A DNA stretch of 64,000 nucleotides from the NCBI RefSeq assembly GCF_057098645.1, contig NZ_CM169472.1. One strand, 5' to 3'. The stretch's first letter is position 1. Each line of letters starts with the position of its first letter. Below are positions 1-3,000 of this stretch, piece by piece. The position numbers are program-made.

Positions 1-3000
1 TTTTTACCGGCGATGAAATACTTCCGGCTCTCGTATCAACCTTAAAATCTGACGAAGATAACCCGAATATTATCGAAGGCGCTTCGTCGTGGTTTGATAT
101 TCAGGCACCACACGACATCACCTTTAATCTTGATGGCGAACCGTTGAGTGGGCAAAATTTTCATATTGAAATACTTCCGGCAGCGTTGCGTTGTCGATTA
201 CCACCAGATTGTCCACTGTTGCGTTAATCAAACTATTCTCTCTTGAACCAGGGAGAATCCGTAATGCCGGATGCGGTGTAAACACCTTATCCGGCATACA
301 GAACAATACTACACCGTAATTAATTTTACCCGCGTCTTCTGCAATGCCAGTTTATCCACCTCTGACACAGCATCATCGGTAATAATAATGTCAATTTTTT
401 CGATTGGTAGTACCTGATTAAAACCGCGACGGTTAAATTTCGATGAATCGAGAACGGCAATCACTTTATTAGCGGCTGTGACCATCGCACCGCTAATAGA
501 ATAACCTTCATTAAAGGTCGTAATACCATTAACCGCATCAATACCATCAGCACCGACAAACATTAAATCGGCATTAATATCCTGTAATGAACGCTCGGCA
601 ATGGAACCATGCATCGAGCGCGTTTTATGGCGGACCGTGCCACCACAGACGACCAGAGTAATGTCTTTATTTTCGGAAAGGGCAAACGCTGCCGGGAGAC
701 TGTTGGTAATCACCGTGATATTTTTGGCGGTCATTAATCCTTCGGCGATAAGCATTGTCGTACTTCCGCTGTCGAGAATAACGGTCATCCCTTCGTGGAT
801 CATTTTGACTGCCGCCTGCGCTATTCTGTTTTTTGGCGCGCTGGCGAGCTGAAATCGCTCTTTAAACCCGACTTCCTGGGTCTCGGTTTCACTATTACCA
901 GACATTATTTTCGCCGCACCGCCATGAAAGCGCGTAACCACGCCTTTTTGTTCGAGAAAGCGCAAATCGGCACGGATTGTCGCTTCCGAGGCAGCAAATA
1001 CTCCCGCCAGATCCTGAACAAGCACGGTTCCCTGTTCATTCACTAATTGGATGATCTTATTCCTTCGCTCGAATGAATTCATCGTCATTTACCCATATTC
1101 AATTGTGGCTAGTGTAAACGAAGGGGGACCATTGGTGAATGATCTGTTTTGCACAATACCGGGCCAGCATCACGCTGGCCCGCGGTTTCAGGGAATGAGC
1201 AACACTTTGCCCGGCATAGCATTACGAGCGATGTCACGCACCGCCTGGGCGAAGCTTTCAAAGCTTCCACGGTGAGCGATTAATGGCTCCAGGCTTAACT
1301 TACGTTCTGTCAGCAACCGGCTCGCCGTTTCCCACTCCTGCCCCGGCCAAGGGCTGGAGTAGTTCATCCAACTGCCGATAACCGTCAGCTCTTTACGCTA
1401 TATTTTGCCAAACGTTGCCGATGTTAAATGCAGATCCTGATGCAACGTGCCCACCAGCGCCAGTTGGGCATGAGGACCGGCAATCTCTACCGCCAGTTCG
1501 ACAGTTTGCGGTACGCCAGCCGTCTCGAGGATAAGCTGATTAAAGCGCAGTTCGCGTAAAACGCTCTGCATTTGCGGCGCGCTCATTTCGCTACTGTTAA
1601 ATGTTTGCATCGCACCGAAAGATTTTGCCAGTGCCAGTTTTTCTGAACTAATGTCGATCGCCGTCACACTCTTTGCTCCCAGCGCGACAGCGCACTGAAT
1701 GGCCAGCAGGCCAATGGTTCCGGCACCAATAATAATAACGTTTTTATTCTCACAACCTTGCGCTAAATGAAAAGCATGCAGACCAACGGTAATCGGCTCA
1801 ATAAAAGCCCCATCCTCAATAGGCATATCCGTGGGTAGAGCAAAGACATTTTTTCGCTTAACGACAATATATTCAGCAAATCCACCATCACGCCGCGAGC
1901 CAATAAAATCATATTTTGCGCACTGGGAATAAAACCCTTTCAGACACTCTGGACAAGTAAAACAGGGTAATAACGGCACACAGGCAACCGCATCGCCAGG
2001 GTGTAAATCATCAACACCGGATCCCACCGCATCAATATAGCCGCTAAATTCATGGCCTAACGTTATTGGATAATAATGTGCACCATTTTTAAATATCCTG
2101 GGTAAATCGGAACCACATAAGCCCGAGCTGGCAATTTTTACCCGCACCTCATCCTGATGTTTAATTTCAGGAATGACGCTTTCTGCAACGCGCACGATAC
2201 CATCAGTATCATTCACCACTGATTTCATAAAAACTCCTGATTGTTAAGGGGGATAACCTCCCCCTCAGGTAAAAATTATTCTGCGAGAACGACTTTCTCT
2301 TGTTTAATAAAGCCACGCGCTCTACGCCAGGTCATGAAAATACCGGTCAGATAAATTGCACCGATAATAATGAAACCGGGAATATTTTGCGGGGAGAAAA
2401 CCTGAATCAGTAACCAGGTAATGGGAGAACCGCCCTGATCCATTGAAGCCACCATACCCCCGGCTTTTAACGCCCCAGCATTAGCCGCCAGTTGGGTGTG
2501 CAAACCAATAGTTTGCGTCGCGATCCACAGGGTGATGCTCATAATGATGACACCCGAGATTAAGGTGCGGAACAGATTTCCACGATGCACGGCGACCGCC
2601 ATCGCCACGAAGAAGCCGATGGTGGCAAGATCGCCAAACGGCAGCACCTGATTACCCGGCACACAAACAGCAATTAAAATGGTGAGTGGGATAAAAATCA
2701 GGCTTGCCGATACCACCGCCGTATGTCCCAGCAGCAACGCCGGATCAAGGCCAATCAGGAACTCCTGACCGCCGAACTTCGCCTGTAAACGACTACGAGC
2801 CTGCTTAGCGATGGGCGTTAAACCATCCATGATGGGTTTAATCACCCGTGGCATTAGCAGCATCACTGCCGCCGTTTTTACCGCCAGCTGCAATACACCT
2901 TTGACATCGTAACCCGCGAGGATGCCGATAATCAGCCCCATCACAAAACCCACGGTGACAGGCTCGCCAAATGGACCAAATTTGCGCTGAATATCGTCGG

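Follow-up and report, generated by a model that had tools for sequence, protein, structure and literature searches.

An inherited gatD amber codon of the Escherichia coli O145:H28 lineage, followed by an IS2 insertion in gatZ

The window analysed here is a stretch of 64,000 nucleotides (nt) of the Escherichia coli contig NZ_CM169472.1 (assembly GCF_057098645.1), which contains the gat operon for galactitol (dulcitol) utilization. Its gatD gene, encoding galactitol-1-phosphate 5-dehydrogenase, is interrupted by an amber codon and is very probably an ordinary nonsense pseudogene: oxidation of galactitol-1-phosphate is expected to be blocked, the clone is predicted to be galactitol (dulcitol)-negative, and the erosion of the operon appears to have continued with the arrival of an insertion sequence (IS), IS2, in gatZ. 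The amber codon is genuine and inherited, a clonal marker that the window strain has in common with the O145:H28 lineage; it is the older, lineage-wide lesion, the IS2 insertion being the younger one, restricted to a sub-lineage. Note that the gatD pseudogene is already known, as it is annotated in RefSeq O145:H28 genomes; the gatZ::IS2 insertion and the order of the two events are the sole elements absent from complete-genome annotations.

A single base change interrupts gatD

On the minus strand, the ATG at 2228 opens an open reading frame (ORF) of 276 amino acids (1398..2228 in the ORF list) with the C-terminus ...SATFGKI. The codons around its stop read ...TTT GGC AAA ATA TAG CGT AAA GAG..., with the TAG at 1400..1398. 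Beyond this codon the same frame continues for 69 codons up to a TGA at 1190..1188, giving 276 + 1 + 69 = 346 codons altogether. Translation of the minus strand thus bears out the sequence-only reading, which had proposed a gatD frame closed by a TAG after SATFGKI and prolonged over 69 codons to a 346-codon total. Alignment with gatD of K-12 MG1655 narrows the lesion down to one base: there is 1 difference in 1041 nt, a sense-strand T→A change at window position 1399, which puts TAG in codon 277 where K-12 has TTG (Leu), and there are 0 substitutions in the 69 codons lying 3′ of the amber. When Leu277 is restored, the translated protein is 100% identical over 346 amino acids to the crystallised E. 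coli GatD (PDB code 4A2C and three further entries). The TAG was said to be premature, and so it is: no reference GatD ends at residue 276, the reference proteins and the NCBIfam equivalog model NF007642 being 346–347 residues long.

A single T→A transversion has turned Leu277 (TTG) into an amber codon, so that translation of GatD should end at residue 276 of 346, removing the last 70 residues. Pfam places ADH_N at residues 25–132 and ADH_zinc_N at residues 172–305 of GatD, and the stop at 277 lies inside the latter; the predicted product would stop short of completing the NAD-binding Rossmann domain and would have no C-terminal segment. The part lost contributes, in medium-chain dehydrogenases, the final strands of the Rossmann sheet along with some of the dimer contact, before the chain folds back onto the catalytic domain. 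Since the stop falls within the nucleotide-binding domain and deprives the protein of a segment proper to its family, the 276-residue GatD is presumably inactive, in which case galactitol-1-phosphate would not be oxidised to tagatose-6-phosphate and the strain would not use galactitol.

The genetic context is that of a genuine gatD, the order on the minus strand being gatY–gatZ(::IS2)–gatA–gatB–gatC–gatD–gatR. The gene combines an in-frame stop, full-length orthologues, a frame conserved beyond the stop and a heritable allele, which are the features of a nonsense pseudogene, and no single polypeptide covers the 347 model positions with both ADH_N and ADH_zinc_N intact. Sequence and context thus agree with gatD and only the full length is missing, so that the gene is classed as a gatD pseudogene and not as a functional member of the family.

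Distribution of the amber allele

To find out who carries the amber, we searched 5,426 complete E. coli genomes with a 55-mer that has the variable base at its centre; because megablast requires an exact word of 28 bases, this probe matches carriers of the A allele exclusively. Exactly 25 genomes carry the allele, with one match each, always in gatD. Nineteen of the 25 are labelled O145 (H28 or NM), whereas the record names of the other six give no serotype; these are 95-3192, RM9872-C1, 99-3311, C325, Z1323HEC0422 and Z1323HEC0399. A block of O145 genomes has a gatD that matches all 1041 nt of the window gene with 100% identity, and the backbone of the window matches O145 genomes with 99.9% identity over a further 25 kb. 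Furthermore, the exact 276-residue product is found on at least 1000 contigs (NCBI, ENA and Logan assemblies) bearing O145:H28 names, and GenBank lists it as 'galactitol-1-phosphate dehydrogenase [Escherichia coli O145:H28]' (AHG09479.1 and others). In the two records examined, those of RM13514 and C325, the NCBI Prokaryotic Genome Annotation Pipeline (PGAP) calls gatD a pseudogene with an 'internal stop'. Altogether, this distribution indicates that the amber arose once, in an ancestor of the O145:H28 clone, on an otherwise K-12-identical gat operon, and was inherited by the window strain.

Other disruptions of gatD came up in the same searches. The gene is split by IS1 in seven complete E. 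coli genomes (H26–H32), and the 90% GatD cluster contains other short forms, e.g. a 147-residue product on 281 contigs, which shows that inactivation of gatD is recurrent in E. coli.

The IS2 insertion in gatZ is the younger lesion

Aligned with O145:H28 strain RM13514, the first 12 kb of the window fall into two collinear blocks, which share 5 bp of the reference and lie 1,331 bp apart in the window. The 5 bp correspond to a target duplication, CATGC, present at 4541–4545 and 5877–5881. The ends of the insert read TAGACTGGCCCCC... and ...GGGGCAAATCCA, termini that presumably agree with the published ends of IS2, and the insert contains two overlapping transposase ORFs, 5830..5420 (136 amino acids) and 5462..4557 (301 amino acids), both open and both co-oriented with the gat operon. 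Elsewhere, pieces matching the insert carry the annotation 'IS3-like element IS2 family transposase'. Its length, the 5-bp duplication, the IS2-type ends and the two overlapping ORFs identify the insert as IS2, oriented with its left end toward the 5′ part of gatZ and its right end toward gatA. gatZ is interrupted after codon 378 of 420, the opening three bases of IS2, TAG, closing the frame. The gatZ::IS2 lesion assumed in the sequence-only reading is therefore real.

A junction-spanning query retrieved the gatZ::IS2 junction from none of the 5,426 complete genomes at a coverage of at least 80%. Looking up the exact 378-residue GatZ product retrieved the same junction, followed by 65 nt of IS2, in two draft assemblies, GCA_029357705.1 and GCA_029361185.1, along with 11 further similar places. 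Over 7.2 kb, GCA_029361185.1 differs from the window by a single base and GCA_029357705.1 by three substitutions and one 1-bp gap. The presence of the junction in these drafts rules out that the insertion is private to one strain. Contigs from four other backgrounds (L009–L012) also end gatZ at this point, which could have indicated an IS hot spot at codon 378. This idea was rejected: the contigs form a selection artefact of the look-up, because they were chosen for cut gene calls of 378 amino acids, and in L009–L011 the two bases past codon 378 fit uninterrupted gatZ and not IS2, while L012 ends at that codon.

The order of the two lesions follows from these distributions: the amber is found in 25 complete genomes and the IS2 junction in none of these, so that the amber preceded IS2. 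Consistently, in the amber-carrying genomes that surfaced in a search with 12 kb of the window, the gat region runs uninterrupted over 10,664 bp. The gatD amber had been described as a second independent lesion of the galactitol pathway, added to gatZ::IS2. The two lesions are indeed independent and the operon is doubly hit, but the order is reversed, the amber being the older of the two. IS2 is a later independent event in a sub-lineage, continuing the decay of an operon that was presumably already non-functional.

The rest of the operon retains the K-12 sequence (Table 1). Over window 1..7990, which takes in gatR to gatY, the sequence is that of K-12 except for the amber, IS2 and K-12's own IS3 in gatR. 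On the other branch of the amber clade, the GatZ substitution L109M is common to RM13514 and C325, and the GatB substitution L26F is found in RM13514. Across the amber clade, the changes accumulated since the amber thus amount to 2 missense substitutions (2 of 2 nonsynonymous), 0 synonymous substitutions and 1 IS, a pattern that, as far as the missense changes go, is consistent with relaxed constraint on the operon.

Table 1. Features of the gat region in the window (all on the minus strand)
Feature	Coordinates	Strand	Remarks
gatR, DeoR-family repressor, intact	309..1082	-	Mapped from PGAP annotations of RM13514 and C325
gatD pseudogene, galactitol-1-phosphate 5-dehydrogenase	1188..2228	-	346-codon frame including the internal TAG, plus terminal TGA
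Orphaned 3′ part of gatD	1191..1397	-	69 sense codons, predicted untranslated; NF007642 positions 278-344
Premature amber, codon 277, TTG (Leu) to TAG	1398..1400	-	Changed base is window 1399
Truncated GatD frame, 276 amino acids	1401..2228	-	NF007642 positions 1-276 of 347
gatC, phosphotransferase system (PTS) IIC, intact	2276..3631	-	DNA identical to K-12
gatB, PTS IIB, intact	3635..3919	-	K-12 allele; RM13514 differs by L26F
gatA, PTS IIA, intact	3950..4402	-	From ORF list, PGAP annotation and K-12 comparison
Detached gatZ 3′ remnant	4412..4545	-	Last 42 codons and stop; holds first CATGC copy (4541-4545)
IS2, 1331 bp	4546..5876	-	Boundaries from alignment to RM13514, 5-bp overlap
Truncated gatZ, codons 1-378 of 420	5877..7010	-	Frame closed by TAG 5876..5874
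gatY, tagatose-bisphosphate aldolase, intact	7039..7893	-	Mapped from PGAP; DNA identical to K-12

Are the two lesions causally linked?

If loss of GatD causes galactitol-1-phosphate to build up in the presence of galactitol and thereby renders the clone sensitive to this sugar alcohol, the IS2 insertion could have been selected later as a polar shut-off of uptake through gatABC, and the two lesions would be causally linked instead of being successive accidents. The order of events, amber first and IS2 later, fits such a scenario, as does the location of IS2, which precedes gatABC in the operon. Dehydrogenase-negative hexitol mutants are reportedly inhibited by their hexitol, an observation attributed to Lengeler. 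In addition, the gat-negative clones of K-12 selected in the mouse gut were hit in gatZ, gatA, gatC and the gatY regulatory region, and no gatD mutants were reported among them (PMC3945185).

We nevertheless consider this scenario unlikely. gatR is intact in the window, and the operon should therefore be repressed without galactitol; in mice, gat-negative mutants did not emerge once gatR had been restored (PMC5850726). The amber carriers that surfaced in the 12-kb search retain an uninterrupted gatYZABC, so that the selective pressure, if any, must be weak. Moreover, polarity of IS2 in this orientation is hypothetical. A consensus scan detected no hybrid promoter at the junction between the right end of IS2 and the gatZ remnant that could drive gatABCD, and such a scan cannot show termination either. 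Were the link true, the locus would offer a natural example of stepwise operon loss driven by a toxic intermediate in a pathogen.

Translation through or beyond the amber codon

Some observations weigh against taking gatD for a plain nonsense pseudogene in a decaying operon. A UAG codon with a C after it terminates translation relatively weakly and is comparatively leaky, so that a small amount of read-through product is possible, and a suppressor tRNA elsewhere in the genome of the source strain is formally still conceivable, unusual as it would be in a wild isolate of Shiga toxin-producing E. coli (STEC). Two missense changes since the amber are much too small a number to establish relaxed selection. 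Finally, a search of the literature for the dulcitol/galactitol phenotype of O145 or for O145 gatD yielded nothing specific.

The first two of these points bear on whether the amber is suppressed, be it by a suppressor tRNA (supE-type or other) or by natural read-through of high efficiency, to the benefit of a full-length functional GatD. The wholly undegraded state of the 69 codons beyond the amber might be invoked in favor of this possibility, but as the entire gat operon has the K-12 sequence except at the lesions, the preserved tail simply reflects a recent mutation. Without a suppressor, read-through usually stays well below a few percent, and it would insert Gln, not Leu. The supE alleles themselves were sought with a 55-mer centred on the CUG→CUA anticodon change of tRNA-Gln. 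It matched 158 genomes, of which 60 were listed, all of 4.5–4.8 Mb and most with names of laboratory K-12 strains, among them C600, DH5alpha and DH1, which were expected as controls; none of the 25 amber carriers is among the 60 matches listed. We also read the relevant locus directly in RM13514, taken as one representative of the lineage: this strain, which has the same amber, contains four normal tRNA-Gln genes, two with a CTG and two with a TTG anticodon, and glnV and glnX both have CTG, whereas ARAGORN detects the CTA anticodon in the supE44 control C600. Hence no CUA-anticodon tRNA is present at glnV/glnX in RM13514, and the 64-kb window itself was found to contain no tRNA gene. On these grounds supE-type suppression was rejected, and the caveat of the sequence-only reading, that the TAG might be suppressed in a supE-type background, finds no support; suppression in any form appears highly improbable.

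As an aside, the supE44 tRNA gene is unannotated in the RefSeq record of C600 (NZ_CP031214.1; L003 2994–3068), and ARAGORN labels it tRNA-Pyl (cta). Suppressor alleles may thus escape standard annotation.

Nor is there much to recommend the 276-residue GatD as a functional short form, either by itself or in combination with a C-terminal piece translated separately. The product does exceed the curated cut-off of the GatD equivalog model NF007642 (579.5 versus 550 bits), and an in-frame ATG lies 12 codons beyond the stop. Against this, the reference proteins and the family model are 346–347 residues long, the stop cuts ADH_zinc_N, and in this family the Rossmann sheet and the dimer interface depend on the missing strands for their completion; in addition, the downstream ATG is not preceded by an obvious ribosome-binding site in the sequence, and PGAP treats the gene as a pseudogene. 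We regard this possibility as extremely remote. Finally, a sequencing or assembly error in an intact gene, to which a one-base difference might be ascribed, is ruled out for all practical purposes by the occurrence of the identical allele in 25 independently sequenced complete genomes and on at least 1000 contigs. The nonsense pseudogene thus stands as the reading that we retain for gatD.

Flanking sequences

Beyond gatY, the similarity to K-12 changes abruptly: fbaB displays about 20 substitutions within about 360 bp (8300–8700), which defines a sharp mosaic boundary. This boundary suggests that the gat haplotype may have been acquired from, or be shared with, a K-12-like lineage through recombination. 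Between fbaB and gatY, the window has an A at position 8009 where K-12, RM13514, C325 and the six draft contigs examined have a C. This private single-nucleotide polymorphism is intergenic and lies in an A-run following a terminator-like hairpin.

The relatives have other annotated pseudogenes: yegX is frameshifted in C325 (L006 14186–14664), and RM13514 has frameshifts in glmL and in the gene for methylaspartate ammonia-lyase (L004 44951–49042). At the other end of the window, region 39001–64000 is prophage-like and adjoins yehQ/btsS; it contains genes for a tape measure protein, a J protein and tail fibres as well as the type III effector gene nleA. Its best matches among complete genomes reach about 93% coverage and about 96.6% identity, and this partial coverage and identity indicate a variable prophage unlike those of the sequenced O145:H28 genomes.

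Comparison with known systems

The finding amounts to ordinary, already-annotated decay of a pathway and involves no new biology. Its interest is of a practical kind: the amber offers a clean marker of the O145:H28 clone at a single base (25 of 5,426 complete genomes), and the dulcitol-negative reaction that it predicts may aid differential plating or in silico typing of this STEC serotype. Together, the amber and the sub-lineage IS2 illustrate the stepwise erosion of gat that is common in E. coli, where the trait varies among strains and is known to be exposed to fluctuating selection in the gut.

The closest counterpart is the gatD pseudogene of O145:H28 strain RM13514 (ECRM13514_RS14070, NZ_CP006027.1; product AHG09479.1), which is identical over the 1041 nt, including the TAG of codon 277, and likewise lies in the context yegS–gatR–gatD–gatC–gatB–gatA–gatZ–gatY–fbaB. 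Compared to RM13514, the window strain has the additional IS2 in gatZ and is devoid of GatZ L109M and GatB L26F. K-12 GatD (PDB code 4A2C, NF007642) is the same at every residue except codon 277, and the operon DNA is identical from gatR to gatY apart from the lesions listed above. K-12 has Leu277 and a full 346-residue enzyme, but its gatR is disrupted by IS3 and its operon is constitutive, whereas gatR is intact in the window.

Loss of galactitol utilization has precedents in the species. About 60% of E. coli ferment dulcitol (PMC10132054), and natural isolates are polymorphic for the galactitol trait (PMC5850726). In STEC of clonal complex CC119 (O165:H25/O172:H25), none of 37 strains fermented dulcitol, and several gat lesions, including an IS insertion, were described (PMC10132054). 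The window strain resembles CC119 in that a STEC lineage has more than one inactivating gat lesion, an IS among them (PMC10132054). The two differ in the nature of the lesions, which are indels and IS without a gatD amber in CC119, and in that the phenotype was measured there and is predicted here.

A second parallel comes from K-12 evolving in the mouse gut, where recurrent IS insertions in gatZ, gatA and gatC, as well as changes in the gatY regulatory region, relieved inhibition by galactitol (PMC3945185). As in the window, IS insertion in gatZ was among the events, and it made the cells gat-negative (PMC3945185). Those clones, however, arose in a gatR-defective, constitutive background in which loss of the pathway is strongly beneficial (PMC3945185, PMC5850726). 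In the window strain, by contrast, gatR is intact, and IS2 would have struck an operon whose gatD had, by prediction, already been inactivated.

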